64,000 nt of DNA, from contig JBFMAF010000034.1 of assembly GCA_040755995.1 (NCBI GenBank), positions 48,743 to 112,742 of the forward strand, read 5' to 3'. This document shows, in pieces, positions 11,739-62,205 of this stretch. Origin of the DNA: Acidobacteriota bacterium. GTDB taxonomy: Bacteria; Acidobacteriota; CAIWXX01. The notes below the pieces were generated by a model. It searched no databases, was not told where the DNA came from, and saw only the letters and a program-made list of their open reading frames with translations. Both the position numbers and the translations under genes were made by a program. Every line of letters starts with the position of its first letter. The stretch's first letter is position 1.

Positions 11739-11751
11739 GTAGGAGGCGCAC

Positions 11752-13721: not shown

Positions 13722-14048
13722 ATGGCTGAGACCAAGCACGACCTGAAGTGCCCCCACTGCGGCCAGATGCTGAGCCCGTTCGGGCTGCCCGAGAGCGGCG
13801 GTTGGGAGTTGCCATTTCAGTTGGCGTGTTTCAACGATGAGTGTTCTTATTACTCCCGGGGCTGGGGATGGATGTTCGAGCGGTTCGGGGTGAGGGCATC
13901 CTACCGCTACCGGGTGGATCCCGTTTCCGGACAGGCTTCCCCGCTTCCGGTGTGGTCCCCTACTGCACTGCGGGACCGAATTCTGGACGACGACACCCTC
14001 GAGAACATCCTTTCTACCCAGGACGTGATCCCTGAACAGAACTGCTAG
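13722..14048 (+). CDS. Small Cys-rich (zinc-ribbon-like) hypothetical protein
   Basis: CPHC...CFNDECSYY motif, RBS GAGGGA, located inside the apr-qmo operon. Confidence 0.7.
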   Translation: MAETKHDLKCPHCGQMLSPFGLPESGGWELPFQLACFNDECSYYSRGWGWMFERFGVRASYRYRVDPVSGQASPLPVWSPTALRDRILDDDTLENILSTQDVIPEQNC

Positions 14049-14084
14049 CTCGGGCGCGTTCCGCGGGAACTGGTACATCTAGAC

Positions 14085-18391: not shown

Positions 18392-18415
18392 TGAAGTTTG
18401 GAGGTTAAGGGAGAC

Positions 18416-19552: not shown

Positions 19553-19626
19553 AGCGCTGCCCAGGTGACGACGCGACAATGCAATGAATCTCGCGAGATA
19601 ATCTCAACGTAAAAGGAGGAGTACTC

Positions 19627-45560: not shown

Positions 45561-46272
45561 TCAGGTCGAGACGCATCACAAGCCGGTCCGTGGCCCTCTC
45601 GGGTGAAATCCCGATGGACCTCGCCTGCTCTTGGAGCTTGGTGACGAACTCGCCACCGCCCTGCAGGTGAGGGTGTGGATGCCTGTCAACGATGCGGAAT
45701 CCGAGCTTCTCCCAGAAAGTGTGCCCGGCGCTGCCCGTGACCTCGTAGATGAGGGGGAGGTCCTCAAATGACTCGGCCTCGATACATTCCCAGCCGTTTG
45801 TCTTGGCCCAATCAATCAGCGTCCTGACCATGCACGTGCCGACGCCCTTTCGCTGGTAAGCATTCTCCTTCTGCTGCGGCGAGCCTGCCATCAGGCAGTG
45901 AACTGCGAGCGTCCTGTCATCTATCTGCGCGGGGGCCGGGTAGCTGCTGTTGGCGAAATCCTCAGCGGGGCCGAAGGGATAGTCCTGTTGAAGGCAAAGA
46001 CCGCCGGCACCATCCATGCTGCATACAACCTTCGGGTAGAAACGAAGATGCCCCACGATTTCCTTGCCGTCGCGCGCCACCATGGCGCACACGCCGTAGG
46101 TCCTGGTCAGCTTCCTCAGAAGCGGCAAGTTCCGATCGCGGAAGCGCTCCCACGGTAGTTCGCTGTCGGGCGGCCACCGGTCGATGATGTCGCGGGAAAG
46201 CGGTCCACAGTGGAGACAGCGCCACAGGATGAACTCCTCCGTCATCGGTTCAACCATGACGTCTTCAATCAT
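45532..46272 (-). CDS. GNAT-family N-acetyltransferase-like protein
   Basis: VHCL...YQRKGVGT, FWEKLGF. Confidence 0.75.
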   Translation of the reverse strand: MIEDVMVEPMTEEFILWRCLHCGPLSRDIIDRWPPDSELPWERFRDRNLPLLRKLTRTYGVCAMVARDGKEIVGHLRFYPKVVCSMDGAGGLCLQQDYPFGPAEDFANSSYPAPAQIDDRTLAVHCLMAGSPQQKENAYQRKGVGTCMVRTLIDWAKTNGWECIEAESFEDLPLIYEVTGSAGHTFWEKLGFRIVDRHPHPHLQGGGEFVTKLQEQARSIGISPERATDRLVMRLDLTWPSFRSVV

Positions 46273-46416
46273 GGCACGCTCAGTCCAGGCCACCGCTGAT
46301 GCCCACGCGCGGGTATCGCCTCGACAGTGGGATCGCAACGTGGCTCAGCCGCACCGTGGTCATCCCCCAACCCTCCTTCTCCGTCGGCCGGTCGCCCAGC
46401 CGCTGCGCGCGGCGGC

Positions 46417-46728
46417 TCAGACCCGGGCTCTCCGCCTGGCGCTCCGTGCATGGCCGACGCTGGCTTCCATGTAGGCCCTGAGCAGTGAGTTGATGCGCGT
46501 CTGATAACCCGGCCCTTGGGATCGGAACCACTCCAGGATGTCATCATCCAGGCGGACTGTGAGCAGCGACTTGCGCCGGATCGGTTTCAGGCCGCGCCTG
46601 ACCAAAGCGCGGGCGAACATCTCCGGTGTGATTTCAGGACTGTCAGACAGGTCGATATCCTCGTCTTTGGTTGCGTCCACACGTGCCCAATCAGTGCACG
46701 ATTTGTTCGAAGTAGCTTTCTTCCTCAT
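46417..46728 (-). CDS. brnA: BrnA antitoxin
   Basis: LTVRLDDDILEWFRSQGPGYQTRINSLLR. Confidence 0.9.
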   Translation of the reverse strand: MRKKATSNKSCTDWARVDATKDEDIDLSDSPEITPEMFARALVRRGLKPIRRKSLLTVRLDDDILEWFRSQGPGYQTRINSLLRAYMEASVGHARSARRRARV

Positions 46729-46966
46729 GTCTCATTGCCTTTCGGACCGAGATGATCCTGATCAGATCACCCTCCTCCGTGTGCGCGACCACGACGGGGC
46801 GCCCCTTGAGCAGGCCGACCGTCTGAAAGCGCCTCTCGTCATAGTCAAAGCGTGTGTCCTCGATTGTAGCCGTGATGCCCTCGAACACGTCCTCGATACC
46901 CACGAAATCAATCCCGTGCTTGCGGAGATTCGCCCGCCGCTTCTTCTCGTCCCATTCGAACCGCAC
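46691..46966 (-). CDS. brnT: BrnT toxin
   Basis: MRFEWDEKKRRANLRKHGIDF...ERRF...IRIISVRKA. Confidence 0.92.
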   Translation of the reverse strand: MRFEWDEKKRRANLRKHGIDFVGIEDVFEGITATIEDTRFDYDERRFQTVGLLKGRPVVVAHTEEGDLIRIISVRKAMRHEEESYFEQIVH

Positions 46967-47187
46967 GCGATGATTGTAACTACTGATCGTAATTACGTCA
47001 ACGTGGCGCTGTCGGCGCTGACTGTGGACATGAGGACACTCCCCCGGGTTTGGGGTTTGTGCAACTCATCGGTTCTGCAAGAGAGCGCATTTGCGCGGCG
47101 ATGGGCGCTACGCTTGTGGCCGCGCCCAGGCCACCCACCATGATAGCCGAAAGAACGAGCGATGGATGTGAGCGGATTGCATGCTGG

Positions 47188-48981
47188 TCATGCACCGTGG
47201 GCCAGGGCCCGAAACTCGGCAGACCTCTGCATGAGCTCATCCCATGTACCGCTGATTTCAATCCGGCCGGCTCGCAGGAAGACGATACGATCACAGTACT
47301 GCACGGTCTGCATGCGGTGTGCGACCAGAAGTATGGTGGTGCGGCCGTGCAGGAAGCCTATGGCCTGCGCGACGGCCTGCTCGGTGCGGGTGTCCAGCGC
47401 GGAGGTGGCTTCATCGAATATGAGCAGCTCGGGGTCGCGATACACCGCCCGTGCAATCGCCACGCGCTGTCTTTCTCCGCCGGAGATCGTCACGCCGCGC
47501 TCGCCGAGCATCGTGTCCAGCCCTGCGGGGAGGCCGGCTACAAAATCCTCGAGCTGCGCCAGGCGGAGCGCCGCATTGACCTTTTCGTCCACGATGGAGC
47601 CATCCGGGACCCCGAACGCTATGTTTCGTCGCAGGGTATCGTGGGTAAGGTAGATGTTCTGGGGCACGTAGCCGATCTTCCGGCGCCAGGCCTCCGCCCT
47701 GTCGCTGATGTCCACGTCATCGACGGTAACTCGGCCCATGGAGGGCGGCAGCAGTCCGAGAATGATGTCGATGAGCGTGCTCTTGCCTGAACCCGTGGCG
47801 CCGACGATGGCAACCGATTCCCCCTTGGCCACGATGAGGTCCAGATCCTTCAAGACAGGTTCGGCCTCGGGTCCGTAAGCAAAGAAGACGCCCTCCACTG
47901 CAAGCCGGCGCTGAAAGGCGAGAGGCCTGTCGCGATCTGCTTCGCCGTGCGGGACGGCCACTGTGCCTATCAGGCGCATGTCTTCGTAGACCAGGTGGGC
48001 ATCCGCCGCCCCGTACCGAATGTTGTTCCACTGGACGGCCATCCGGTTGAAAGAAGGAATGGCCCGGAATCCTGCATAGGCGAACAGGCCCAGCAGCGGA
48101 AGCACTTTTTGCCCGCCGCCGGCTTCCGCGCAGGTCATACCGACAACCAGCAGAGGGATGCAGACGAAAACCGTCTCGACTAGAAACCGTGGGGCAGCGT
48201 TGAGAGTGGCGTGCCACTTGCGTGTCTTCTCGAGGCGGAGCTGGAGCGACAAGAACATGTCGTACCAGTGGCGCTCGCCATCCATGGCCTTCAGTTCCCG
48301 GATGCCGCCGAGCGCCTGCTGCAGGGCCTCCCGGGACTCTACCGAGAGCTGGTGCTGCTCGGCACCGAGGCGGTAGAACCGTCTGTGAGTCCCGTACAGC
48401 AACGCTCCGAGCACAAGGCCGATCGCGGCCAGCGACACGAGCGTTGTCACCGGCGAAGCGAGAATCAGCACGGCGGCCATGCCCGCCAGAACCAGTATTT
48501 CGGATATGCATGAAACCGCCGATTCCAGCACCCTCCGTACGGCATCCTCCGTGCTTCGCACGACCTTGTGCGTGAGGCCTGCGGAACTGCGGCGAGAATG
48601 GAACGGCAACGGGGCACTCAGATACTGCAACAGGAGACCGCTGGAGAGCGCGGCCACCGTCCTGCCTGTCACGGCGCTTCTGAGGTAGGTTGAACCGAGG
48701 AGGAAGAAGTTCTTGAATACGAAAAGACACGCGGCCGCGAGCGTGAACGAGAGGATGAGCCCGGTCGCGTCCCGGATGCCGAGCGCTGAGTACAGCATAG
48801 AGACGACGGGCATGCTGTAGGCGCTACTCGGGCTGTCCATGATCCTTATAAGAGCAAAGACGGCCGCGGCGCCCAGGCTTTCGAGCACGGCCTCGACAAG
48901 CGAAAGGGGGATGAGGCCGAACCACCCGAGCCGCATGCGCGGGCTCAGAAGGGACAGGAGCTTGCGTATACTTGCAAGCAT
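47188..48981 (-). CDS. ABC exporter, fused permease/ATPase (PglK/MsbA-like flippase)
   Basis: Transmembrane domain plus GATGSGKS, ISGGERQR and DEATSALD. Confidence 0.88.
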   Translation of the reverse strand: MLASIRKLLSLLSPRMRLGWFGLIPLSLVEAVLESLGAAAVFALIRIMDSPSSAYSMPVVSMLYSALGIRDATGLILSFTLAAACLFVFKNFFLLGSTYLRSAVTGRTVAALSSGLLLQYLSAPLPFHSRRSSAGLTHKVVRSTEDAVRRVLESAVSCISEILVLAGMAAVLILASPVTTLVSLAAIGLVLGALLYGTHRRFYRLGAEQHQLSVESREALQQALGGIRELKAMDGERHWYDMFLSLQLRLEKTRKWHATLNAAPRFLVETVFVCIPLLVVGMTCAEAGGGQKVLPLLGLFAYAGFRAIPSFNRMAVQWNNIRYGAADAHLVYEDMRLIGTVAVPHGEADRDRPLAFQRRLAVEGVFFAYGPEAEPVLKDLDLIVAKGESVAIVGATGSGKSTLIDIILGLLPPSMGRVTVDDVDISDRAEAWRRKIGYVPQNIYLTHDTLRRNIAFGVPDGSIVDEKVNAALRLAQLEDFVAGLPAGLDTMLGERGVTISGGERQRVAIARAVYRDPELLIFDEATSALDTRTEQAVAQAIGFLHGRTTILLVAHRMQTVQYCDRIVFLRAGRIEISGTWDELMQRSAEFRALAHGA

Positions 48982-49255
48982 TCTACTGCCTCCCCGGGAT
49001 CAGGCTCTTGTGCACAGTCTCGGTCTTCTCTCCGAAAGCTGCCCGCGAAACAGCCGCTGCCAATTTGTACACCAGCAAGCCCAGAGCCTCGGATAGTGAT
49101 GTTTCAACGGCAATGACGACGGGGTTGGCGCGGCACGGCGGCTGTCATGGGAACTCTTTCGCGAGACCGAATTCACTCATCCCGCATGCACTATAGGGCA
49201 TCGTTGCACGTTCCGTCAACGTATGCGCAGACCCACCCGTCGAGCGTTCCGCACT

Positions 49256-49284
49256 TTGACAACCGGCCTACCTCAACATATATT
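49256..49284 (+). promoter_or_regulatory. Sigma-70 promoter for the radical SAM/glycan operon
   Basis: TTGACA-17 bp-TATATT. Confidence 0.7.
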
Positions 49285-49393
49285 CTCGCGGTGCCATGTT
49301 CTCATCGGCTTCCGCGTGACGAAGGCCGGGCATGGTCGACGATGGAGTTGCCCTAGCCCTTCGAGCCTAGTCGTGGATATCTACAGGACTGGA

Positions 49394-50647
49394 ATGAATC
49401 CGGGAACCTTCAATCTCGTAAACGGATCATGCCATCGGCGCCAGGAGGAAATAGCCGCGGTCAAGAGATTCCTTGTCTCGAACAGATGGAGAGAGGAAGG
49501 CGGTGTCAATCAGGCGGACCTGGTCATATTCTTTGCCTGCGGTGCGATGCGTCTCAATGTCGATGAAATGATGGTGAGCCTCACCGACGTCATTGGCAAG
49601 ATGAAGAACGGCGCAGAGCTCGTCGTCGGCGGCTGTCTGCCCCGGACAGACAGCGAGAGGCTGAGCCAGGTCTTCACTGGAAAGACGATTACGTACGCCG
49701 ATTACACCGCGCTCGACACGCTCCCCGGCGTCGAGAATCGGTTCGAGACACTGCCGAAGGTGTTCGGCAATGGCGCGTTCTGCCCGCCGCTCGTCAAGCC
49801 GGGCCTGCGCAAAGCGGGCGCTCTTCGCCTCGTCAGGCTCTCACTTGACCTCGCGCGTGTGTTGATGCGCCACCGGCCGACATCCATTCTGAGGAGAATC
49901 GCATCAAGGCTCAGGCAATACGAGCGCATGGTGATCAGCGTTGGGGCAGGCTGCTCTCGAACCTGCCCCTATTGTGCGAAGCGATTCGCCCTGGGCCCCG
50001 TGAGGAGCAAACCGGCAGAGAAAGTCATGCAGCGGATTGCGGCAGGGAGAATGCTGGGGTACCGGACCTTCGATCTCTTTGCCGATTCGATCGGAGACTA
50101 CGGCCAGGATCTGGGCACCGACTTCGGAGCGCTCCTCGACAGCATCGCGGACTTCGAGGCAGCCGTCAGCGTCGGGATCTATGATCTACACCCCGAGGAT
50201 TTCATCCGGTACTTCGACAGAATCCTCGGTTTGTGCAAAACGGACAGGTTGCATTACCTTTACGTAATCACGGAATCGGGAAACGCGCGGGTGCTGAGAT
50301 CGATGCGTCGGGAGATCGACACCGTGGATCTCGCTCGAAAGCTTCAGGCAATTCGCGGCTACAAGAGCGTTTTCATGCAAACGGCGATCATTGTCGGCTA
50401 TCCGGGCGAGACGGATGAGGAGTTCGACGACACGCTGGCGCTGCTCGGCGAAGTCAATTTCGACAATGTGTACGTGCATTGTTATTGCGATATGCCGAAC
50501 ACAGAGTCATCCCGGCTCGACGGCAAGATCTCCAAGGAGACCGTGTCGAGACGATTGCGCAGGATAGCCGCTGCCGGCATCAGGCACAGCGTTAGCGAGG
50601 CCAGGCGCGAGTGCGATCACTCGTTCCCATGGGGCTCGTTGGGCTGA
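49394..50647 (+). CDS. MiaB-like radical SAM methylthiotransferase-family protein 1 (no TRAM domain)
   Basis: UPF0004 cysteines (SCHRRQEE, FFAC, GGCLP), CSRTCPYC, IVGYPGET. Confidence 0.82.
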   Translation: MNPGTFNLVNGSCHRRQEEIAAVKRFLVSNRWREEGGVNQADLVIFFACGAMRLNVDEMMVSLTDVIGKMKNGAELVVGGCLPRTDSERLSQVFTGKTITYADYTALDTLPGVENRFETLPKVFGNGAFCPPLVKPGLRKAGALRLVRLSLDLARVLMRHRPTSILRRIASRLRQYERMVISVGAGCSRTCPYCAKRFALGPVRSKPAEKVMQRIAAGRMLGYRTFDLFADSIGDYGQDLGTDFGALLDSIADFEAAVSVGIYDLHPEDFIRYFDRILGLCKTDRLHYLYVITESGNARVLRSMRREIDTVDLARKLQAIRGYKSVFMQTAIIVGYPGETDEEFDDTLALLGEVNFDNVYVHCYCDMPNTESSRLDGKISKETVSRRLRRIAAAGIRHSVSEARRECDHSFPWGSLG

Positions 50648-50704
50648 TGAGGGCGTGGCGTTGAGGCTGGCACCGCCGATTCAACTATCTGCATCTAGAA
50701 TCGC

Positions 50705-51943
50705 GTGAGATCGTTTCACTTCGTCGACAATTCGTGCTATCGCCGGCAGGAAGAGGTGTCAATGGTGCGCAGGTTCTTCCTGTCGAACGGATGGACGGAG
50801 TCAGCGACGGTGGAGAATGCCGACTGCGTGATCCTGTTCACCTGCGCGGAGATGCGTTACAAAGCGGCCAACATGATCGGAGAAGTGGAAAGGCTGTCGG
50901 CTCGGATCGGCCGTGATTCGGAGTTGATTGTGGGAAGCTGCCTGCCGAAGACCAACAAGGAAGCGCTGGCGAAGGTCTTCAGCGGGCGCACGATCACGCC
51001 GACCGATTTCAGCGCGCTCAACGCTCTTCCGCAGATCAAAGTCAAGATCGAGGACATGCCACCCGTCTTTGGTAGGAATGCGGCCTTCAGGCCGTTCCCT
51101 GCGCGGAATCGTTGGAGCAAGGGCAACGCCATTCCGTACGGGATATCACGTTGGGCTTCCAGGCTTATGCTTCGCCACCTTCCATTCGACGGTCTGAAGG
51201 GCCTCGCGATAAAGCTCGGAAGAACCAGGGCGATGCGAATCCATGTATCGGCGGGCTGTGCCAAGAACTGCTCTTACTGCGCGATTCATTTCGCGACCGG
51301 GCAGGTCAGGAGCAAACCGCTCGAAGTGATCATGCAGACTATCTCCGAGGGGCTCCGGCTGGGATACAGAACTTTCGATCTCATCTCCGACTCCATCGGC
51401 AGCTACGGCCTGGATCTCGGCACGGACCTGGGCGAGCTATTCGATCGTGTTCTGGGACATCCGGATCGCTTCACGATCGGCATCGACGATCTACATCCAC
51501 ACGAGTTCATCAGGTACTTCGACGGGGTCTTCTCCCTGTGCAGCGCGGGCAAGATGTCGTACCTCTACGTGCCGGTTCAATCAGGCAATGAGCGGATACT
51601 GGGATTGATGAATCGCCGGTGCAATGTGAAGGACCTGACGGACAAGCTCCTAATGATGAGGCACCTTGGAGATGTTTTCCTGGAGACGAGCGTCATCGTG
51701 GGATTTCCCGGGGAAACCGAGGCGGAATTCGACGACACGGTTCATTTCTTGAAGACGGTCGATTTCGACAACGTGTTCATACACTACTACTGCGACATGC
51801 CGAACACCACATCCTCGATCCTCCCCGACAAGACGGACAAGGCCACCATGGTGGAGCGATTGAACCGGATCAATCGTTCAGGCATCAGGCACTCTGTGGC
51901 GGCCACCCGCCACGAGTGGGACTGCAATCTGGCGCTTCCATGA
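50705..51943 (+). CDS. MiaB-like radical SAM protein 2 (no TRAM domain)
   Basis: SCYRRQEE, LFTC, GSCLP, CAKNCSYC, VQSG, IVGFPGET. Confidence 0.82.
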   Translation: MRSFHFVDNSCYRRQEEVSMVRRFFLSNGWTESATVENADCVILFTCAEMRYKAANMIGEVERLSARIGRDSELIVGSCLPKTNKEALAKVFSGRTITPTDFSALNALPQIKVKIEDMPPVFGRNAAFRPFPARNRWSKGNAIPYGISRWASRLMLRHLPFDGLKGLAIKLGRTRAMRIHVSAGCAKNCSYCAIHFATGQVRSKPLEVIMQTISEGLRLGYRTFDLISDSIGSYGLDLGTDLGELFDRVLGHPDRFTIGIDDLHPHEFIRYFDGVFSLCSAGKMSYLYVPVQSGNERILGLMNRRCNVKDLTDKLLMMRHLGDVFLETSVIVGFPGETEAEFDDTVHFLKTVDFDNVFIHYYCDMPNTTSSILPDKTDKATMVERLNRINRSGIRHSVAATRHEWDCNLALP

Positions 51944-53205
51944 GCAAGAAGTTCCTCATCATCGGCAAGTCGTGCAGTCGGCGGCAGGAAGAAGTGTCCA
52001 TGGTGAGGAGGTTTCTCCTGTCGAACGACTGGAACGAAACCGGGCGACTGCAGAGAGCAGACCTGATTGTCTTCTTCGCCTGCGCCGGTGTCCGCTGCAT
52101 CGTGAACGAGAACCTGGAGGAAATAGCAGAAACCCAGAAGAGAATGAAACCGGGCGCAGAGCTGATTGTCGGAAGCTGCCTGCCGAGAATGGACACCGAG
52201 AGTCTTCGAAGCGTCTTCAAAGGGAGAACCATCACCCCGACGGACTTCACGGCGTTGAACGATCTCCCCAATGTCCGGCTGCCTTTCGAAGCCATGCCCG
52301 CCATGTGGGGCAGGGATGCTGCGTGCATCCAGTTGAAACACCCCGGATCGATCGCTGCCTCACGAATGTGGATCGAGGACGCAGCATTCCAGTGCGTCAA
52401 GTTCATCATCGAAAAGCGGCCGGCCCCCTTCTTGAAGCGGACGGCCTTCTGGCTGAAGAGGCGCAACATCGTGAGCTTCTCTGTCGCCGCAGGCTGCTCG
52501 AGGAAATGCGCCTACTGTGCCAGGCCGTTCGCGAGCGGAAAGGTACGGAGCAAGCCGATCGAGGTGGTCGTGGAGAATATACGCAGAGGACTCAGCCTGG
52601 GCTACAGAAGCTACAACCTGTATGCCGACTCCATCGGCACCTACGGCTCTGATCTGGACGTCAGTCTCGGGGATCTGTTGGAGCGGATTCTGGGCATAGA
52701 CGGGCGTTTCACAATCGGCCTGTATGACGTACATGCGCAGGATTTCATCAGGTTCGTTCATCCGATCAAGCGCCTGTGTGAATCGGGAAAGCTCCATTAC
52801 CTCTATGTGGGCGTCCAGTCTGGGAACGAGCGCATCTTGAAACTGATGAGGCGGCCGTGCGACGTGGAGGACCTGGCGGCGAAACTGGCCGACATACGGC
52901 GCTTCGAGCACGTGTTCATGCAGTCGGCGATCATCGCAGGATTCCCAGGGGAGACCGACGACGAGTTCGAAGATACGCTTCGGCTGTTGAAGCGGGTCAA
53001 CTTCGACAACGTCTTCGTTCATTGCTACTGCGACATGCCGAACACCGAAGCGTCCGGCATGCCGGCCAAGGTCGACAAGGATGCAGTGCGCGGGCGGCTC
53101 ACCCGTGTCACACGCGCAGGCATCCATCATGACGCAGCGGAGGCCCTGCAAGAGTGGGACGGCAACCCCGCTATTCACGATTATTTCGGACATCAGGCCC
53201 GATGA
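51940..53205 (+). CDS. MiaB-like radical SAM protein 3 (no TRAM domain)
   Basis: SCSRRQEE, FFAC, GSCLP, CSRKCAYC, IAGFPGET; ATGA coupling. Confidence 0.82.
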   Translation: MSKKFLIIGKSCSRRQEEVSMVRRFLLSNDWNETGRLQRADLIVFFACAGVRCIVNENLEEIAETQKRMKPGAELIVGSCLPRMDTESLRSVFKGRTITPTDFTALNDLPNVRLPFEAMPAMWGRDAACIQLKHPGSIAASRMWIEDAAFQCVKFIIEKRPAPFLKRTAFWLKRRNIVSFSVAAGCSRKCAYCARPFASGKVRSKPIEVVVENIRRGLSLGYRSYNLYADSIGTYGSDLDVSLGDLLERILGIDGRFTIGLYDVHAQDFIRFVHPIKRLCESGKLHYLYVGVQSGNERILKLMRRPCDVEDLAAKLADIRRFEHVFMQSAIIAGFPGETDDEFEDTLRLLKRVNFDNVFVHCYCDMPNTEASGMPAKVDKDAVRGRLTRVTRAGIHHDAAEALQEWDGNPAIHDYFGHQAR

Positions 53206-54512
53206 GATCAATCAGGAGCAGGCCGGCACCGGCCGCGCCGATCTTGTCTGCTCCCGCTGATGCATCCACCCCTGTGAAGACCTTCACATTCGTCAACCAG
53301 TCGTGCCACCGGCGTCAGGAGGAAATCGCCATGGTCAGGCGGTTTCTTCTTCTCAACGGCCTTGCCGAGGACTCGGATCTGACGAGAGCGGACCTGGTAA
53401 TCCTCTTCACCTGCGCGTTCTGCCAGAGCAAAATCGCGGACATGTTGAATGAGATAGCGCGCATTCGTTCCGTCATCAGGGAAGGATGCGAGCTTGTCGT
53501 CGGAAGCTGTTTGCCAAAGACAGACGGCGCCGGGCTGCGGAAGGTCTTCAGCGGAAAAACGATCACGCCTACCGATTTCAGCGCGCTCAACCGGCTCCCC
53601 GGGATCACCTCCGGAATCGAGGAGATGCCGGAGGCGATCGGAAGGCAGGCTGCATGCGAGCCGCTCGTCATCCAACCACCCTCGAACACGGCCAGGGCTC
53701 GCTTGAAGGCACTTGCGCTGGGCGCTACCAGATCGCTGATGCGCACATGGCCGGCGCTGCCTCTCGAAAGAGTCGCTACCAGGCTCGAAACCGACCGGCG
53801 AATGGGAGTGTTTATCTCTTCAGGCTGCATGCGAAAGTGCTCGTATTGTGCGATCCGGTTCGCCACTGGGCAGCTCAGGAGTAAACCGCTGGACGTGGTC
53901 ACTCGAGCGTTTTCCGAAGGGCTGGATCGGGGATATCGCAAGTTTGAGCTGTATGCCGATTCAATCGGCGACTATGGGTTGGATATCGGCACGGACCTCG
54001 GCGAGCTGTTTGACTGGTTCTCGAAGAGCCATCGGGTCTTCAGCGTCGGAATCTATGATCTCCACCCGCAAGCGTTTCTGAAGTTCTTTGGAAAGCTCTT
54101 CTCACTCTGCAGGGCGGGCAGGATTCACTATCTCTATGTTCCCCTGCAATCGGGCAACGCAAGAATCTTGAAATTGATGAATCGCTCGTGCGATGTGAAC
54201 GCTCTCTTGAGGAAGCTCCTGGAAGTGAGGAAACATCGTGGTGTGTTTCTTCAGACCAGCGTCATCGTGGGCTTCCCGACCGAAACAGACGCGGAATTCG
54301 AGGAGACGCTGGCTTTTCTAAGGGCAGTCCGGTTCAGCAATGTGTTTGTCCATTTCTACAGCGACATGCCCAATACGGAATCATCGAAACTGGCCGACAA
54401 GATAGACAGGGCGACCATGCTGCTGCGGCTGAAGCGACTGGGGAGAGCCGGTATCAATTATGACCCTGACATGGCCCGGCACGAGTGGGAAGCTACCCCC
54501 GCTCTTGGTTGA
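53202..54512 (+). CDS. MiaB-like radical SAM protein 4 (no TRAM domain)
   Basis: SCHRRQEE, LFTC, GSCLP, CMRKCSYC, IVGFPTET; ATGA coupling. Confidence 0.82.
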   Translation: MRSIRSRPAPAAPILSAPADASTPVKTFTFVNQSCHRRQEEIAMVRRFLLLNGLAEDSDLTRADLVILFTCAFCQSKIADMLNEIARIRSVIREGCELVVGSCLPKTDGAGLRKVFSGKTITPTDFSALNRLPGITSGIEEMPEAIGRQAACEPLVIQPPSNTARARLKALALGATRSLMRTWPALPLERVATRLETDRRMGVFISSGCMRKCSYCAIRFATGQLRSKPLDVVTRAFSEGLDRGYRKFELYADSIGDYGLDIGTDLGELFDWFSKSHRVFSVGIYDLHPQAFLKFFGKLFSLCRAGRIHYLYVPLQSGNARILKLMNRSCDVNALLRKLLEVRKHRGVFLQTSVIVGFPTETDAEFEETLAFLRAVRFSNVFVHFYSDMPNTESSKLADKIDRATMLLRLKRLGRAGINYDPDMARHEWEATPALG

Positions 54513-54611
54513 CCATGCATCGTGATCTGCGCCCGAGCGCGGGAGTTGCGTCGTGAAGGCACCTGTCGCCGGCGAGCGACCTCTGCAACCAGGTCTGGCG
54601 CACGCACGCCA

Positions 54612-55790
54612 ATGAGCCGCGTTGGATTTCTCTGGGACTCGCTGAGCGCCAATACGGGTGACCAGGCCATCGGTCTGACCATGCTGCGCCTGGCGCGGCG
54701 CGCCGGGCTGCGCGGCCTCGATCCCGTGCGGATCGGCGAGCCGCTGGCCGGCCGCTACGACATGCTGGTTGTCGGCGGCGGCGAGCTGCTCCACCCGCCG
54801 GGCCACGGCTTCTACGACCTCTTCCGCGTCCCGGGCGAGCACGTGCTCAGCACTGTGGGCACCTCCGGCGTCGTCGATGCCAGCCATCTCTCGTCCTACC
54901 GGCTGGTCACCGTGCGGTCATCGGCGGACCGCGACAACCTGCGCGGACTCTCGCGCGAGGTGAAGGTCGCTCCATGCCTCAGCGTGCTGTTCCCAGGGCT
55001 GGCCGAGGACCATCCGGCGGCCATGGAGCGGGACTCGATTCTGGTGCACCTGCACGCGGGAGCGTTCTTGCCGAGCACCGCCCCGACGATGGTGTCGATG
55101 CTGCGGCGGCTGGGCCGGCCGGTTGCGCTGCTTCCGTTTACACCCTACATCCGCGACGCCGACATACAGGCAGTCCTCGCCGCCGCCGCGGACATCGCTC
55201 CACCGCTCGCAGTCGCCGGCCCGGACCAGGTATTCGCCGCCATGCGCCGGGCTGGTGCAGTGGTCGTCGCGTCGCTACACGCCGCGATCTTCGCGTACAT
55301 CGCCGGCGTGCCCTTCCTTGCAATTCCGTACGTGCCGAAGGTGAGGCACTTCATGGCAGAGCGCGGACTTGAGCACCGGCTGCTGCCGGACGTGCTGCGC
55401 CTCCCAGAGAGGCTGCATCTCCTCGCCGCCGATGGCGTCGACTGGCAGGCGACGGCCGCGGCAGATGTGGCGTCCGCAGGCGCGGTCGTGGATGAGATAT
55501 TCGCCTTGGTCGAGGACGCCCTTGCGCGGTCCGGTGGAGGTCGGGCCTGGGGAGCCGCCTGGAGGGAGCCGGCCTGCCCCGAGCGGGCGCACGCCGAAAC
55601 CATGGGCCGCATTGCTGAGTTCGGCCGCCGGCAGGCGCAGGTCACGGCCGACGTTCTCGCCGGCCGTCACAGATTGCGGCGACTGATCGCAACCGGCATT
55701 CGGACGGTGGTGAAGCATGTGCCGGCGATCCGCCGGCTGGGCTGGGCGCGAGCGGTGTGGGAGCGGTGGCTGGTGACTCATGGCTGCTGA
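54612..55790 (+). CDS. Polysaccharide pyruvyl transferase family protein
   Basis: NTGDQAI, VGGGELL, VTVRS, SLHAAIFA...VP...Y.PKV. Confidence 0.78.
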   Translation: MSRVGFLWDSLSANTGDQAIGLTMLRLARRAGLRGLDPVRIGEPLAGRYDMLVVGGGELLHPPGHGFYDLFRVPGEHVLSTVGTSGVVDASHLSSYRLVTVRSSADRDNLRGLSREVKVAPCLSVLFPGLAEDHPAAMERDSILVHLHAGAFLPSTAPTMVSMLRRLGRPVALLPFTPYIRDADIQAVLAAAADIAPPLAVAGPDQVFAAMRRAGAVVVASLHAAIFAYIAGVPFLAIPYVPKVRHFMAERGLEHRLLPDVLRLPERLHLLAADGVDWQATAAADVASAGAVVDEIFALVEDALARSGGGRAWGAAWREPACPERAHAETMGRIAEFGRRQAQVTADVLAGRHRLRRLIATGIRTVVKHVPAIRRLGWARAVWERWLVTHGC

Positions 55791-56703
55791 CGGCGGTCCC
55801 AGCGGCTCCACCGAGCCCCTGGTCTACGTGGTGGTGCTGAGCTGGAACCGCGCCGCCACGACGCTCAGGTGTATCGAGTCAGTTGCCGGCAGCAGCTATC
55901 GGAACGCCCGCGTGGTTGTCGTCGACAATGCATCCGCCGACGATTCTGTGGCACGCATTCGGGAGCGATTCCCTCAGGTTCCGCTCATTCAGAACCCAGC
56001 TAACCTGGGGTACGCCGAAGGCAACAACGTGGGGATACGGTACGCGATGGAGAGGGGAGCCGAGTTCGTGCTGGTGCTCAATGACGACGTCTTCATTGAA
56101 CCGGACGCGCTGGGCCACATGGTGGCCGCGGCGGGCCCAGGGGTGGCGGCCGTCGGGTGCAAAGTGCGCCTCTTCGACGAGCCCGACCGGTTGTGGGCGG
56201 CCGGCGATCTCAATTTCCGGACGGCAGATGCACACCCGAAAGACGACGGCCGTTTCGATGCGCCACGCGACCTGGACTACGCCGTGGGTTGTTGCATCCT
56301 CCTCCGCGCCGGCGTCCTCGATGAGATCGGGCGTTTCGATCCTTCATACTTCCTCGAGTTCGAGGAAGTCGACTGGTGTTCCCGCGCCCGGAAGGCGGGT
56401 CACAGGATCGTTTATGAGCCGAGAGCCGTGGTCTACCACAACCATTCGGTGTCTTTCACCGACAGTTGTTCGCCGGCCTTCCACTATCTCTCCGCCCGCA
56501 ACTGTCTTCTGTTCTGGAAGCGCAATGACGTCGTGCTTAGCGGACGCCCCCGCGCCCTCTACGGCCTGATTTCGTGGCTGGCCCAGCTTCGTCTCATTCT
56601 GCGCACAAGGGGTTCCAAGCTGCGACGGATCACTGCCGCTACGCTCGGGGTCGTCGACTACTACCGCGGGCGCTTTGGCGCTCCACCTCCCAACCTCTAC
56701 TGA
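55780..56703 (+). CDS. Glycosyltransferase family 2
   Basis: VVDNAS, NLGYAEGNN, LNDD, GCCIL, FEEVDWC.R. Confidence 0.9.
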   Translation: MAADGGPSGSTEPLVYVVVLSWNRAATTLRCIESVAGSSYRNARVVVVDNASADDSVARIRERFPQVPLIQNPANLGYAEGNNVGIRYAMERGAEFVLVLNDDVFIEPDALGHMVAAAGPGVAAVGCKVRLFDEPDRLWAAGDLNFRTADAHPKDDGRFDAPRDLDYAVGCCILLRAGVLDEIGRFDPSYFLEFEEVDWCSRARKAGHRIVYEPRAVVYHNHSVSFTDSCSPAFHYLSARNCLLFWKRNDVVLSGRPRALYGLISWLAQLRLILRTRGSKLRRITAATLGVVDYYRGRFGAPPPNLY

Positions 56704-56719
56704 TCATGGGGGCGCGCGC

Positions 56720-57949
56720 GTGAAGATCCTGTACGCCGCCGGCGACTTCCCGGCAGAGCCTCTGAACGGGTGCCACTGGTTTGCGTACAACCTGATTAAC
56801 TGCATGGCACGATCGCACGAGTGCCACCTGATCAGTCTTGCCATGCCGGGGCGAGCCGCGTGCGTCCGGGAATGGGAGCGGTGCCTGCCGGGCCTGCGCG
56901 TGCTGGATGTTCTCCCGGTGCGGCACCGTCAGCTGGTGCGTTGGTCGAAGGGGGCGAATTACATCACGAACCTCCGGATCCCCCATCTCGTGCAATGGAT
57001 GACACCGGGGTTCACTCGTGCACTTCGACGGGTGGTCCGCGAGACCTCCTACGACCTCGTCCACTTCACCGACATCACCCTGGTCTTCTATCGCAACCTT
57101 GTGCGTGGCTCCCCAGTCGTGATCTCCGGGCCCGATCCGGCCTCGCTCCATCTCCGGGGCAACATGCCGTTTGAACCTTCGTTCGCAAAGAGAGTGAAGT
57201 TGGCCACGACGGCCCGGGCGTACGGCAACATAGAACGGACCCATCTAAAGACGTTCTCAGCGGTCCACGTGGTGTCCGAGGCGGACGCCGAGCACTTGAG
57301 GCGCAGCGCCGGACTGAAAAACGTCACTGTGATTAACCATGCGGTGGACCCGAGATTCTTCGCCGTCCCCATTGAGGCCTGCGGCGACGAGGATGCAGTT
57401 ACCATGTTCAGCTCGGGATCCTTCTCGGTGCCCTACATACGTACGCCGTTCATGAGCTTCTTCGAGAGGCACTGGGATGCGATCCGGCGATGCCGCCCCG
57501 CGGCACGCTGGGTTGTCGCGGGACCGGGAGCGCCAGCCGATGTGAAGAAACGGCTCACGGCGGCGCCCGGTGTCGAATACCACGAGTGGATTCACGACTA
57601 TGACGGCGCTCTCTTTCGATCCGACATCGCCGTTTTTCTGGATGGCAGCGGAACGGGCATGAAGACAAGGGTGCTGCAGGCCATGGGCGCCGGAAAGGCA
57701 GTGGTCGGCACGCCTTTCGCCTTCACAGGGCTTGAGGTCAAACACGGAGTGCAGGGCTTCATCGCGGACGGGCACGATTCCTTGATGAGGGCCCTGGTCG
57801 CTCTGATCGAGTCGCCCCGGCTGCGGCGTGAAATCGGCGGGGCCGCGAGGGAACACGTCAGGGCGAGATTCACGCTGGAAATCACGGGCCGAAAGTGGGA
57901 TGCCCTGTACGAGCGAATGTTGCGGCAGCATCGGGATACACGGCTGTGA
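56720..57949 (+). CDS. Glycosyltransferase family 4
   Basis: GT-B fold motifs VVSEAD and GTGMKTRVLQAMGAGKAVV. Confidence 0.85.
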   Translation: MKILYAAGDFPAEPLNGCHWFAYNLINCMARSHECHLISLAMPGRAACVREWERCLPGLRVLDVLPVRHRQLVRWSKGANYITNLRIPHLVQWMTPGFTRALRRVVRETSYDLVHFTDITLVFYRNLVRGSPVVISGPDPASLHLRGNMPFEPSFAKRVKLATTARAYGNIERTHLKTFSAVHVVSEADAEHLRRSAGLKNVTVINHAVDPRFFAVPIEACGDEDAVTMFSSGSFSVPYIRTPFMSFFERHWDAIRRCRPAARWVVAGPGAPADVKKRLTAAPGVEYHEWIHDYDGALFRSDIAVFLDGSGTGMKTRVLQAMGAGKAVVGTPFAFTGLEVKHGVQGFIADGHDSLMRALVALIESPRLRREIGGAAREHVRARFTLEITGRKWDALYERMLRQHRDTRL

Positions 57950-58076
57950 ACAGATGGGTTGCCGCCCGCCCGCCCGGTCGAGTCTTGCCTTGTCGAAGCC
58001 CTATCGATATACTCGGAGTTCGGTACCTCGGAGTCGGCGCTGGCGCGACTAGCTCGCCAAGAGGAGCTTTGTACCA

Positions 58077-59078
58077 ATGGAGATCAAGGGATTGCGCGTG
58101 CTCGTCACGGGCGGTTGCGGATTTCTCGGATCGTGGATTGTCGAGGACCTTGTGAAAAGAGGCGCCGACGTCACGGTCTACGATAACCTCAGCCGCGGGA
58201 CTCAGGACAACCTGAAGGCGGTTGAGAAGGATGTCAGACTCTCCGTTGCGGACATACGCGATCAGCAGAAGGTCTACGAGGCTTGCCGGACGGCGGATGT
58301 CGTTTCTCACCATGCTGCTCAAATCGTGTCGTCGTTGGAAAGCTCGATCGAGACGATCGAGGTCAATCTGTCGGGCAGCGTGAAGGTATTCGAGGCCGCC
58401 GCCGCGGCCGGCGTCAAGAAGGTGATCTACGCCTCGTCCGAGACCGTGTACGGGCATGCCAACGCCCTTCCACAGGATGAAAACCATCCGACCAATCCGC
58501 TCTGGCCATACGGAGTCACCAAGCTGGCCGTGGAGAAGTTCGCCAGCATCTTCCACGCCTACTCCGGGATGAAGATGATCGGGTTGAGGTACAGCGACAT
58601 ATACGGGCCGAGGGAGTGGTACGGGCGCGCGTCGACGGTGTTGCTGCGAGGCGCGATGCGCGGCGAGCAGCCGGAAATGCCCGATGCCGATCAACTCAGG
58701 GACTACTGCTACGTCGCGGATGCCGTCGCGTTTCACAACCTCTGCATCGCTGAAGATGAGCTCGATGACGAGATCTTCAATGTCTCCACCGGAGTCGCGA
58801 CGAGTACAGGGGAGCTGGCGGAGCTGATTGCGGACACCTGCCGCCTGGATTGGAGCACTCCGCGGCTTGCCCACGGCGACGCAAGGCACGAAGACGTGCG
58901 GGCGAGCCACGTGCCGCATGCTGAGTGCAAGGCGATCGTGCTGGACAACTCGCGGGCGAGGCGCATCGGGTGGGTGCCCCACGTCATGCTGCCGGAGGGG
59001 ATCAGGCACCAGCTGGAGTGGCTCCGTGCTCATCCTGCTGCATGGGACGGAGCGCGGGTTGCAGGAGAGGTTGGCTAG
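58077..59078 (+). CDS. NAD-dependent nucleotide-sugar epimerase/dehydratase
   Basis: TGGCGFLGS, ASS..VYG, YGVTK, RDYCYVAD. Confidence 0.9.
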   Translation: MEIKGLRVLVTGGCGFLGSWIVEDLVKRGADVTVYDNLSRGTQDNLKAVEKDVRLSVADIRDQQKVYEACRTADVVSHHAAQIVSSLESSIETIEVNLSGSVKVFEAAAAAGVKKVIYASSETVYGHANALPQDENHPTNPLWPYGVTKLAVEKFASIFHAYSGMKMIGLRYSDIYGPREWYGRASTVLLRGAMRGEQPEMPDADQLRDYCYVADAVAFHNLCIAEDELDDEIFNVSTGVATSTGELAELIADTCRLDWSTPRLAHGDARHEDVRASHVPHAECKAIVLDNSRARRIGWVPHVMLPEGIRHQLEWLRAHPAAWDGARVAGEVG

Positions 59079-60053
59079 GTGAAGAGACAACAGATGCTGT
59101 ATCTGTCTCGCTCCGATGTCGAGAAGGTGGCATTGGATATGCCCACGATCATTGCCCTCCTCGAGGAGGCCTTCAGGGAGAAGGGGCATGGGCGCGTCGA
59201 GATGCCTCCGAAACCCGGCATCCACACACGCCCGGACGCGTTCATTCACGCGATGCCCGCTTACATCCCGGCGCTGCGGTCGGCGGGGATGAAGTGGGTG
59301 AGCGGCTATCCGGACAACCAGAAGCTCGGCCTCCCATACATCTCCGGCCTACTGATTCTGAACGACGCCGAGACGGGACTGCCGTACGCTGTCATGGATT
59401 GCAGCTGGATTACGGCCTACCGGACTGGAGCGGCCTCGGCGCTGTCAGCCAAGTATCTGGCGCGCCCATCAAGCGAGGTCGTCGGAGTGCTGGCGTGCGG
59501 TGTCCAGGGGCGCACAAACCTCATCGCCCTCGCGTCGGTGCTGCCGATCAAGCGCGCCTACGCCTTCGACATCTCCGCCGCGGTCCAGGAGCGCTTCGTC
59601 GACGAGATGCATTCCAGTCTTGGCATCGAGGTCATCGGGGTCGACGGGCCCCGCCGCGCGGTCGCCGAATGCGACGTCGTCGTCACCTCAGGACCGATTC
59701 TCAAGCATCCGGTGCCGGCCATCCAGAAGGACTGGCTGTGTCCCGGGGCCTTCGCAAGCGCGGTGGATTTCGACAGCTACTGGGCCGGCGAGGCTCTGGC
59801 GCAGTTCGACAAACTGGCCACCGACGACATTGCCCAGTTCGACTACTACCGGAGCGCCGGCTATTTCCAGGCGACTCCGCGGCCCTATGCGGACCTGGGC
59901 GAGCTGGTGGTCGGGTTCAAGCCCGGCCGCGAGCGAGACGACGAGCGAACCATGGCGATGAACCTGGGGCTGGCGCTCGACGACATGGCGGTCGCGCCGG
60001 AGATCTATCGGAGGGCGCGGGAGAAGGGCATTGGGACGATGCTGGAGCTGTGA
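59079..60053 (+). CDS. Ornithine cyclodeaminase/mu-crystallin family protein
   Basis: HAMPAY, GMKWVS, ITAYRTGAA, GLALDD. Confidence 0.88.
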   Translation: MKRQQMLYLSRSDVEKVALDMPTIIALLEEAFREKGHGRVEMPPKPGIHTRPDAFIHAMPAYIPALRSAGMKWVSGYPDNQKLGLPYISGLLILNDAETGLPYAVMDCSWITAYRTGAASALSAKYLARPSSEVVGVLACGVQGRTNLIALASVLPIKRAYAFDISAAVQERFVDEMHSSLGIEVIGVDGPRRAVAECDVVVTSGPILKHPVPAIQKDWLCPGAFASAVDFDSYWAGEALAQFDKLATDDIAQFDYYRSAGYFQATPRPYADLGELVVGFKPGRERDDERTMAMNLGLALDDMAVAPEIYRRAREKGIGTMLEL

Positions 60054-60216
60054 GGTGTCTGTCTTCGTCCCGGAGGGCGCCCGATACCTCGCTCTCCCCA
60101 TGAACCACGCCGTGCCGACAGGATGCAGTCCATTGCCAGGGTTCGCAGGGGGCCAGGCGGCTCCCCGTTGAATCTCTCAACTTGCGGGACCACGCTGGTC
60201 TGTGCAGAATGCCGAT

Positions 60217-61236
60217 ATGAAACGGCGTGAGTTCCTTGGGTCGGCCGCGACAGTTGCGGGTCTTGTGATGACTCCGAGCGGCGTCCTCAGCTCGGATGCG
60301 AAGAGCCGTGTCGTTCAAGTGTTCCACGCTGACGCCGTGCGCCCCGGCAGGCAGGTGGATCAGGCTATCGTAGCGAAGATGCTTCGCAGCGGCCTCAGGG
60401 CGCTGGCCGGCGAGGGCCAGTCCATCGGCAAGTGGGTCCGCCCGGGCGATCGGGTCGGGCTCAAGATCAACACGCTGGGCCGCCCGCTTCTGTTCACGCA
60501 TCGCGAGCTGATACTAGCCCTCGTCGAGGAGCTGAAAGAGACGGGGGTCAGCGAGAACAACATCATTGTATGGGACCGGTTCGAGAACCATATGTTGGAG
60601 GCGCGATTCGTCATGAACAACTCGGATCGCGGCGTGCGCTACGTCGCGACGGAATCAGGCGGCGATGGGCCTGCCAGACTCGACGACAACGAGCCCTACC
60701 AGTCTGCGCATGACGATCCGCGCGATCGCCACAACGGCGACACCGCCTCGCGATTCTCCCGGATCTTCACTCGGGAATGCGACAAGATCATCAACATGCC
60801 GATCCTGAAGGATCACGGCCAGACGGGCGTGACCCTTTGCCTCAAGAACCTGGCCTTCGGTATCACGACGAACAACAACAGGTTTCATGGAGCCAGCCAC
60901 GTCGGACCGTTCATATCCGATATATGCGCCCGGCCGCTAGTGAAGTCCAAGACCGTCCTGCATATTCTTGACGGCCTGGAAGGATGCTTCAACAATGGGC
61001 CGGCACCGCGACATCCGGGCTCGTTTTCGACGCCCCGCACAATCTGGCTCGGCTTCGACCCCGTGGCCGTCGACGTGGTCGGGCGCAGGGTAATCGAAGA
61101 GCAAAGGCGCGCAGGTGGGTTGCCCTCGCTTGCGGCCATGAACAAGCCGGTCGACTACATAGAGATGGCGGCCCGAAAGGGAGTAGGGGAATGCAATCTC
61201 GATCGCATCTCCCTCGAAAAGATCTCCGCTGCCTGA
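60217..61236 (+). CDS. Tat-exported DUF362 protein
   Basis: MKRREFLG, VGLKIN, NMPILKDH...TLCLKN, DPVAVD. Confidence 0.82.
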   Translation: MKRREFLGSAATVAGLVMTPSGVLSSDAKSRVVQVFHADAVRPGRQVDQAIVAKMLRSGLRALAGEGQSIGKWVRPGDRVGLKINTLGRPLLFTHRELILALVEELKETGVSENNIIVWDRFENHMLEARFVMNNSDRGVRYVATESGGDGPARLDDNEPYQSAHDDPRDRHNGDTASRFSRIFTRECDKIINMPILKDHGQTGVTLCLKNLAFGITTNNNRFHGASHVGPFISDICARPLVKSKTVLHILDGLEGCFNNGPAPRHPGSFSTPRTIWLGFDPVAVDVVGRRVIEEQRRAGGLPSLAAMNKPVDYIEMAARKGVGECNLDRISLEKISAA

Positions 61237-61295
61237 TTGGCCTTGCCAGGTTCGCGCATCGCTAGACAGGGACTCCCTCGATGGGCGCCCCCCTA

Positions 61296-62192
61296 TCACA
61301 CGAATGCATCCTTGTCGTACCCGATCTTGATGAGCTCGATCCTCTGTGGGTCCGCCGTGCCGAGATGGTACTTCGTGTCGGCGATGGCTATGTGCTTTGC
61401 GGGCGGGCTGAGCGGCCGGTCTTCTGCGAAGTAGTCGCGTCTGATGGCCTCGATTATCCGCAATCCGGTGGCATCCACTGCGACAGCATCGAACCCCAAC
61501 AACAGCCCGTAGTACTTCCAGACATACTTGGGGCTGAAACTGTGGGGACCGAAGCTGTGGAATTGCGGCGTGAACATCACGAGCACGTTCAGCCGTGTCT
61601 TGCCCCTCACGATTGGCAGATCCCAGATTGACGCCAGATCCGCGCAGGAATCGCCATGAATGGAGCTCGGATCCGGCAAGAACATGATGTAGTTCTTGAT
61701 CAACCCTCCGACCCCCGCCCAGTGGTGCGAGCGCATCGGACGGGCGTTGACGAGCGCCGTGGCCTTCTGGAAGATCGGATTCCTCAGGACGTTCAAGTCG
61801 TCGATGCTGATATTCGGTTCCTTGACGCCGGCCTGGACAATCCGCTTCTTCAGCGCATTCTCGACCTCCGCTGTCGTCTTGAGATATGGCCACCTGTTAT
61901 TCTTGATGCCGACGATGTCGTCCGGCTCGATGATCGTCTTCCAGGCGCTCTGCGGGTCGGGCTTGCCGGTCAGGGCCTTGATGCCCGTGTCCAGCATCTC
62001 CTGTACTACGGCCTGCTGAGGCATGCCGGTTTCGCCCAGGACGTTGAGATCGCGCACGAGCACGACCCGGCTCTTGTCGGACTTTGCGGCAGTCGTCTTC
62101 TCCGCTGCCGAGAGCAACAGGGGCGTAGCTATGGCGGCGGCCGAGGCGCTCTTGATGAATTCCCGCCGGCTGATCGATTCGATCGACTTCAT
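61296..62192 (-). CDS. Tat-exported DUF362-like protein
   Basis: SRREFIK, VGIKNN, GGLIKN, DAVAVD. Confidence 0.78.
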   Translation of the reverse strand: MKSIESISRREFIKSASAAAIATPLLLSAAEKTTAAKSDKSRVVLVRDLNVLGETGMPQQAVVQEMLDTGIKALTGKPDPQSAWKTIIEPDDIVGIKNNRWPYLKTTAEVENALKKRIVQAGVKEPNISIDDLNVLRNPIFQKATALVNARPMRSHHWAGVGGLIKNYIMFLPDPSSIHGDSCADLASIWDLPIVRGKTRLNVLVMFTPQFHSFGPHSFSPKYVWKYYGLLLGFDAVAVDATGLRIIEAIRRDYFAEDRPLSPPAKHIAIADTKYHLGTADPQRIELIKIGYDKDAFV

Positions 62193-62205
62193 CGATACCT
62201 CCGTT

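Follow-up and report, generated by a model that had tools for sequence, protein, structure and literature searches.

Methylthiotransferases (MTTases) of the MiaB, RimO and MtaB types are the closest described relatives of the enzymes treated in this report. According to passages of a 2023 paper (PMC10702137), no MTTase substrates are known apart from tRNA and ribosomal protein S12, and a three-Cys site in the MTTase domain of characterised members holds the cluster that donates the sulfur or methylthio group. Here we describe four tandem MTTase-like genes, RS1 to RS4, in a 64,000-nucleotide stretch of DNA from an Acidobacteriota bacterium (GTDB lineage Bacteria; Acidobacteriota; CAIWXX01; GenBank assembly GCA_040755995.1, contig JBFMAF010000034.1, positions 48,743 to 112,742, forward strand), hereafter the window. 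The genes encode radical S-adenosylmethionine (SAM) enzymes lacking a TRAM domain, and they are followed by glycosyltransferase genes. As the best combined explanation, we tentatively propose that these two-cluster enzymes belong to a glycan-building module and transfer a sulfur-based group to sugar carbons.

RimO, which acts on S12 Asp88 (PDB 4jc0), resembles RS1 to RS4 in its three-Cys UPF0004 domain and radical SAM core (Foldseek TM 0.67) and in acting on a non-RNA substrate, as we propose for the RS family. It differs in that it has TRAM, whereas the RS family has none and carries a basic insert of about 37 residues; in its motifs (CPKNEAD and YSDEEGT, compared with C-x-RR-x-EE and Y-x-DMPNT); and in being single-copy and encoded outside glycan operons, whereas RS genes are multi-copy. 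MiaB and MtaB (PDB 7mjv, 9a6d) share the fold (TM 0.66 to 0.69) and six Cys ligands, presumed to hold two [4Fe-4S] clusters; the RS genes, in contrast, are tandem, multi-copy, without TRAM and co-linear with glycosyltransferase genes. The same two-domain architecture of about 400 amino acids (aa) is found in unnamed TRAM-less metagenome proteins, seen in the ESM Atlas as unnamed UPF0004 + Radical_SAM clusters (Omnitrophota, Methanobacteriota, Bathyarchaeota; e.g., P0099). These are about 30% identical to the RS family and score 222 to 322 bits with the family profile, compared with 560 to 643 bits within the family; they are mostly single-copy and occur in mixed contexts, some in polysaccharide loci (L019, L024), and no characterised member was found in the literature searched. 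Cobalamin-dependent (class B) radical SAM enzymes have an N-terminal B12 domain, whereas RS1 to RS4 are without PF02310.

Among described gene neighbourhoods, the O-antigen-type loci with a Wzm/Wzt exporter come closest. They share Wzm, Wzt with Wzt_C, a methyltransferase-GT2 fusion, and GT2 and GT4 glycosyltransferases with a related locus in a second genome (G010), whereas the window itself has an MsbA/HepA/PglK-like exporter in place of Wzm/Wzt. To our knowledge, Wzm/Wzt polysaccharide loci carry no MTTase-like radical SAM genes. A search of the full-text literature (supplements and subscription journals were outside reach) turned up no publication that describes MTTase-like enzymes without TRAM from a glycan locus, nor any paper on the 'MTL1' clade of older MTTase phylogenies, and passages of PMC10702137, PMC13459092, PMC9016551 and PMC9477430 contain no such description.

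Domains, motifs and fold of RS1 to RS4

All four paralogues matched the Pfam domains UPF0004 and Radical_SAM (PF04055, 47 to 67 bits). None matched TRAM (PF01938 or PF18693) or the B12-binding domain PF02310, the N-terminal domain carrying a Cys triad instead, and NCBIfam equivalogs for B12-dependent radical SAM enzymes gave weak partial matches confined to the radical SAM core. TIGR00089 (NCBIfam) scored 166 to 187 bits against a cut-off of 251, its matches stopping at profile positions 356 to 365 of 429, and the MiaB, MtaB and RimO equivalogs scored 108 to 149 bits against cut-offs of 355 to 357. The C-terminal extension past the core measured at most 21 residues here (2 to 9 in the TRAM test), compared with 63 to 87 in 19 canonical enzymes. 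In an AlphaFold2 (AF2) model of RS2 (pLDDT 93.4; pTM 0.90), the C-terminus was formed by two helices. The top PDB folds for this model (Foldseek) were MtaB, MiaB and RimO, at the TM values given above, followed by MgmA (9ccb) and AprD4 (6fd2); the best PDB sequence match by profile was RimO (4jc0; 199 bits).

Pairwise identity among RS1 to RS4 was 46 to 54% (E about 1e-130 or lower). Invariant in their alignment were the three N-terminal Cys, CxxxCxxC, C-x-RRQEE and H-x-Y-x-DMPNT; across 75 family sequences, C47, C79 and CxxxCxxC were invariant and C11 was present in at least 90%, and in the wider family the first motif broadened to C-x-R-R-x-E-E. Aligned to RimO, both motifs proved to be diverged versions of the canonical MTTase motifs CPKNEAD and YSDEEGT. 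In a profile alignment, the stretch joining the two domains was longer than that of RimO by about 37 residues, and the 80 residues before CxxxCxxC, with a net charge between +4 and +12, contained amphipathic 11-mers with moments of 0.6 to 0.8. An original prediction, made from the letters of the window, had described four diverged paralogues that each retain six cluster Cys, lack a C-terminal TRAM and carry a basic amphipathic insert before CxxxCxxC, and all of this agrees with the alignment, the absence of a Pfam TRAM match, the early profile end, the two C-terminal helices, and the length, charge and moments of the insert. The prediction had also called the C-x-RRQEE and H-x-Y-x-DMPNT motifs family-specific; their invariance in the four proteins stood, but not their specificity, both being diverged canonical motifs and the first being looser in the wider family.

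Phylogeny and extent of the family

RS1 to RS4 are additional to the housekeeping MTTases of this genome (7.74 Mb; 99.84% complete), which encodes elsewhere a MiaB (457 bits) and a RimO (434 bits), together with an MtaB-like protein whose score of 349 bits falls slightly short of the equivalog cut-off and exceeds that of TIGR00089. In an IQ-TREE tree of 83 hand-chosen rows, with e-MtaB/CDKAL1-type sequences left out, the 19 TRAM-bearing rows, among them the three enzymes of this genome, were separated from every TRAM-less row (SH-aLRT 99), and the 38 family rows formed one clade (support 99) nested among TRAM-less relatives. Clustering with canonical tRNA or S12 enzymes, named beforehand as the outcome that would speak against the original prediction, was not seen.

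A FastTree tree of 117 rows, from a search seeded with RS2 and therefore biased in its orthogroup sizes, gave 29, 18 and 26 rows in the RS2, RS3 and RS4 orthogroups, respectively (supports 99 to 100), and placed RS1, together with one other sequence, as sister to the RS3 group. Orthologues of RS2, of RS3 and of RS4 are also encoded on further metagenomic contigs. With contig sameness inferred indirectly from equal longest-contig values, four further contigs (lengths 16768, 141326, 5082 and 16616) each hold members of all three of these orthogroups, and 14 more hold members of two. Basal family members from Deltaproteobacteria-labelled metagenome-assembled genomes (e.g., MBW1741946.1 and MBW1858593.1) appear solitary. 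Judged from these sequences, the RS paralogy is old and the paralogues travel together.

In a search of 5.8 billion proteins, 96 of the 120 matches listed scored at least 303 bits, and the next full-length match scored 192 bits. Among the best 150 matches in a search of 1.84 billion representatives, 16 reached 223 bits or more, and the others were proteins of about 400 aa with about 30% identity. A C-terminal extension of at least 55 aa was lacking in 140 of these best 150 representatives (50% identity) and present in 5, with 5 more being partial; the TRAM-less nearest representatives therefore form a large branch of the superfamily. By these sequence comparisons, RS1 to RS4 are a distinct family within that branch, with a size of about 100 database clusters. 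The family is rare, being found in 2 of 401 genomes of a phylum sample (G000, G010) and in 2 of 3 genomes of a class sample; a looser threshold, with four candidates scored per genome, gave 4 of 401, adding a TRAM-less relative (G026) and a partial match (G196). Many homologues bear the name 'tRNA A37 methylthiotransferase MiaB' or 'CDKAL1' in the output of JGI pipelines, and NCBI calls them only 'radical SAM protein'; the specific MiaB and CDKAL1 names are probably over-annotations.

Among the matches listed by a profile scan of metagenome contigs (80 loci, all at 33% identity or less), no new core-family locus was present; 7 of the 80 were TRAM-less relatives and the rest canonical MTTases, the patterns being too general. 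A scan of genome contigs yielded one relevant locus (L009), and its other match, a Prevotella MTTase, was set aside as irrelevant. For the wider TRAM-less relatives, seven loci had flanks that could be read. Three of them were sugar-related, being flanked by Wzx and an acyltransferase (L019), by RmlD, a dehydratase and Wzx (L024), and by galactokinase and YfhO (L106); one had a PqqD neighbour, and a further three of the seven were uninformative or lay among other radical SAM genes. L021 (483-5150), on a low-GC metagenome contig, has a tandem pair of MTTase-like genes without TRAM (417 and 413 aa) next to two further radical SAM genes, and represents an independent tandem duplication in the wider branch. 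Among the wider TRAM-less relatives, P0135 and P0194 (1245 and 1019 aa, respectively) are fusions of at least two MTTase-like units, or possibly gene-calling artefacts; P0135 has an additional N-terminal MurB_C domain (the C-terminus of an enolpyruvyl-sugar reductase).

Glycan partner genes and layout of the locus

Only one related genome was found, G010, which is of the same family as the genome of the window and carries orthologues of RS1, RS2 and RS3 in the same order (about 70% identity each), with RS4 absent. Its locus lies on one strand and comprises a methyltransferase-GT2 fusion, RS1 to RS3, GT2, GT4, Wzm, Wzt with Wzt_C, a pyruvyl-transferase-like gene and a Kdo-hydroxylase-like gene. 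The pyruvyl-transferase-like protein and GT4 of the window are 68% and 70% identical to their counterparts in G010, and its GT2 shares 77% identity with the corresponding domain of the methyltransferase-GT2 fusion encoded directly upstream of RS1 there; the order of the partner genes is rearranged relative to the window. The short-chain dehydrogenase/reductase (SDR) gene, the ornithine cyclodeaminase/mu-crystallin (OCD) family gene and the ABC exporter gene are not in the G010 locus and are therefore not conserved parts of the module. In wider searches, the pyruvyl-transferase-like family proved small, with 34 matches, and shares a contig with RS matches in 4 cases (the window's own contig, G010, and contigs of length 43852 and 6354), and GT4 gave 6 orthologues of at least 63% identity, 4 of which do so (including those on contigs of length 9752, 5869 and 6354); contig sharing was again inferred indirectly.

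The pyruvyl-transferase-like protein matched PS_pyruv_trans (PF04230) with 42.3 bits against 25.3, over profile positions 120 to 278 of 280 only, and scored 53.7 bits for the CsaB equivalog, whose cut-off is 213. Its AF2 model (pLDDT 89.8) matched generic GT-B enzymes in Foldseek, including Pvg1p (TM 0.45/0.52), and a PDB sequence search gave nothing significant. Some relatives (P0278-P0282 and P0295-P0297) are fused to Kdo-hydroxylase-like (PF11004) or 2OG-Fe(II) oxygenase domains, and in G010 the pyruvyl-transferase-like and Kdo-hydroxylase-like genes are adjacent (L009, 17655-19743), which suggests that the protein may be functionally paired with an oxygenase. A PF11004 search of the window's own genome gave no match, as did its positive controls. 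For the OCD enzyme, the best NCBIfam match was the archaeal alanine dehydrogenase (196 bits; cut-off 409). The exporter scored 267 bits for MsbA (cut-off 602), 258 for HepA (725) and 252 for PglK (1000), all below the equivalog cut-offs.

Table 1. Features of the RS locus, in window coordinates
Feature	Position	Strand	Remarks
ABC exporter, fused transmembrane and ATPase domains	47188-48981	-	Divergent; ABC_tran 108 bits
Promoter-like site TTGACG-18-TATAGT	49219-49190	-	Faces exporter; 10/12 consensus match only
Promoter-like site TTGACA-17-TATATT	49256-49284	+	11/12 consensus match only
RS1, TRAM-less MTTase-like radical SAM enzyme	49394-50647	+	417 aa from ATG; 424 aa from GTG 49373
RS2, TRAM-less MTTase-like radical SAM enzyme	50705-51943	+	412 aa
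RS3, TRAM-less MTTase-like radical SAM enzyme	51940-53205	+	421 aa
RS4, TRAM-less MTTase-like radical SAM enzyme	53202-54512	+	436 aa
PS_pyruv_trans-family protein, GT-B fold	54612-55790	+	392 aa; conserved partner
GT2 glycosyltransferase	55780-56703	+	307 aa; Pfam; conserved partner
GT4 glycosyltransferase	56720-57949	+	409 aa; Pfam; conserved partner
SDR sugar epimerase/dehydratase-like protein	58077-59078	+	After 127-bp gap; not in G010 locus
OCD family enzyme	59079-60053	+	203 bits (Pfam); abuts SDR stop; not in G010 locus

ATGA overlaps join RS2 to RS3 and RS3 to RS4, and the pyruvyl-transferase-like gene overlaps GT2 by 11 bases; the gap between GT4 and the SDR/OCD pair contains a weak promoter-like site. 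Six promoter-like sites were observed in the 16-kb region, compared with 3.3 expected. The promoter before RS1 lies inside a 474-aa open reading frame (ORF) starting at 49223, and the RS1 start must therefore be placed downstream, at ATG 49394 or GTG 49373. An Rfam scan of 46000-62500 gave nothing relevant (one sub-threshold snoRNA match, E 0.5), alignment of the upstream region with that of G010 revealed no conserved leader or riboswitch, the upstream regions not being conserved, and a small-ORF search found matches inside large genes and none outside them.

Several further claims of the original prediction bear on this layout. The proposed link of homologues to glycosyltransferase loci was borne out, the closest homologues again standing with the same GT2, GT4 and pyruvyl-transferase-like genes, and the near-consensus sigma-70 promoter before RS1 is present as a consensus match. 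The order pyruvyl-transferase-like gene, GT2, GT4, epimerase, OCD gene was read correctly, but the last two, which follow a gap and are absent from the G010 locus, are not conserved parts of the module. The divergent ABC exporter is likewise there, but it is equally MsbA-, HepA- and PglK-like, a likeness in general ABC exporter architecture only, and the specific PglK assignment was dropped.

Just after the operon lie two convergent DUF362 genes, 60202-61236 (+) and 61296-62192 (-), one of them with a weak match to a twin-arginine translocation (TAT) signal. A dissimilatory sulfur-metabolism cluster occupies 1669-20895 of the window, with genes for sirohaem synthase, a CobB/CobQ-like amidase, two NIR_SIR proteins, a GltD-like oxidoreductase, AprB, an AprA-like protein, Qmo/Hdr-like proteins and ATP sulfurylase; one NIR_SIR gene scored 562 bits with the dsrA model, and the window thus named carries dsrAB-like, aprBA, qmo-like and sat genes. 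ATP sulfurylase is encoded three times (19627-20895 and 35425-36693, 422 aa each; 41719-42471, 250 aa, truncated), and a mobile or defence-like island lies between the copies, with genes for an ORC/CDC6-like protein (22677-26378), a C5 DNA methylase (27703-28758), a HerA-like DUF87 protein (28783-30453) and a DDE transposase (32648-34306). The original prediction had suggested that the RS enzymes use the host's own sulfide, and this idea lost ground: dsrA was found in 40 of the 401 phylum genomes, compared with 2 of 401 for the RS family, which gives no specific tie. G000, G010 and G026 carry dsrA, and G029, of the same family, is without both dsrA and the RS family; this co-occurrence was rejected as evidence for a sulfide link, the genomes being too few and related.

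Proposed substrate and chemistry

The RS genes stand in a conserved sugar-polymer module, and a glycan rather than RNA is therefore the probable substrate; that the enzymes act on something other than RNA or S12, tied to glycan assembly, we consider likely. In the explanation that we favour, RS1 to RS4 are two-cluster radical SAM enzymes of a TRAM-less sister lineage to MiaB, RimO and MtaB, each keeping a radical SAM [4Fe-4S] site and a three-Cys auxiliary-cluster site, with two short helices replacing TRAM. Together with GT2, GT4 and the pyruvyl-transferase-family GT-B protein, they form a conserved module that would build an exported glycan. The paralogues may each act at a different position, abstracting hydrogen from an unactivated carbon in a sugar or sugar substituent, the substrate being a putative nucleotide- or lipid-linked intermediate at the membrane, and a sulfur-based group, most likely methylthio, would then be transferred from the auxiliary cluster, as in MTTases. 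Methylthiolation specifically is a possibility that we would put somewhat short of an even bet.

Several observations weigh against this explanation. UPF0004 matches were weak (25 to 31 bits), those of two of the four proteins falling short of the 27-bit cut-off, and in the RimO alignment Arg takes the place of the canonical Asn after the first Cys. Six Cys do not prove methylthiolation, an auxiliary cluster being able to serve oxidation or other radical chemistry. The wider TRAM-less relatives occur in mixed contexts: L022 adjoins a PqqD gene, and L021 and L023 adjoin other radical SAM genes and a MacB-type permease gene. Neither the window locus nor the G010 locus contains a sulfur-donor gene or an initiating phosphoglycosyl transferase gene. 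All documented cases of linkage to glycosyltransferase genes come from close relatives, with 63% identity or more between partner proteins, which is close to a single evolutionary observation, these relatives probably being one lineage.

The same glycan module could host radical chemistry on sugars without addition of sulfur, such as C-methylation, dehydrogenation or epimerisation, deoxygenation or C-C bond formation, with the auxiliary cluster as an electron conduit. MgmA, a methylase, and AprD4, a sugar diol-dehydratase with an aminoglycoside substrate, are the next structural matches after the MTTases and fit such chemistry, as do the strong divergence from proven MTTases seen in the TIGR00089 scores and the lack of a sulfur-trafficking gene in either locus. 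Against it, the MTTase domain keeps its three-Cys site throughout the family, passages of PMC10702137 assign a sulfur-donating cluster to this site in characterised members, and Pfam detected no B12-binding domain; we regard non-sulfur chemistry as possible, though doubtful. A specialised or redundant role on tRNA, rRNA or S12, with the glycan genes adjacent by chance, has hardly any likelihood. The JGI MiaB names that would favour it are automatic, and NCBI assigns no such function; TRAM is absent, all scores lie under the equivalog cut-offs, the clade is separate, a canonical set is encoded elsewhere in the genome, and co-linearity with the glycosyltransferase genes is conserved.

Two other substrate classes are each improbable. 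A peptide or protein could be modified and then glycosylated, the product being a glycopeptide or a ribosomally synthesized peptide with post-translational modifications (RiPP) exported by the ABC transporter. RimO, the best profile match in the PDB, demonstrates that the fold can act on protein, L022 has a PqqD-like RiPP recognition element (RRE) as its neighbour, the best NCBIfam match of GT2 is a mycofactocin glycosyltransferase (88 bits), and NHLP bacteriocin exporters are among those that the exporter resembles (234 bits); against this, neither locus nor its surroundings yielded a PqqD/RRE, a peptidase or a conserved small ORF, the upstream regions show no conservation, and G010 uses Wzm/Wzt with a glycan-binding Wzt_C. 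Alternatively, the substrate could be a membrane lipid chain or the aglycone of a glycolipid, with GT2 and GT4 making the head group and an MsbA-like exporter flipping the product. The basic amphipathic insert, which by its sequence may dock at a membrane surface, is consistent with a lipid, as are the MsbA/HepA-like exporter and the presence in the window of only two glycosyltransferases and of no Wzx/Wzy or initiating transferase; the exporter of G010 is nevertheless of the Wzm/Wzt polysaccharide type rather than MsbA-like, and neither locus contains lipid-synthesis genes, so that this account, too, seems a poor prospect.

The RS family is a variant of a known enzyme kind and is probably new. 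In its boldest form, the favoured explanation of sulfur transfer to sugar carbons would make it the first carbohydrate-directed MTTase branch, three or four specialised enzymes decorating a surface polysaccharide or glycolipid with methylthio or other sulfur groups, each at its own unactivated carbon; we think this rather unlikely. The sulfur group might serve as a terminal cap read by a Wzt-type exporter. If true, MTTase substrates would extend beyond tRNA and protein S12, and sulfur-cycling bacteria would possess a sulfur-decorated glycan. If the enzymes act on a glycan, radical C-H functionalisation of carbohydrates would gain a new class, and widespread automatic 'MiaB' annotations would be corrected. 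With multi-paralogue sets, tight glycosyltransferase coupling and a defined exporter, the locus offers an informative entry point to the TRAM-less branch.

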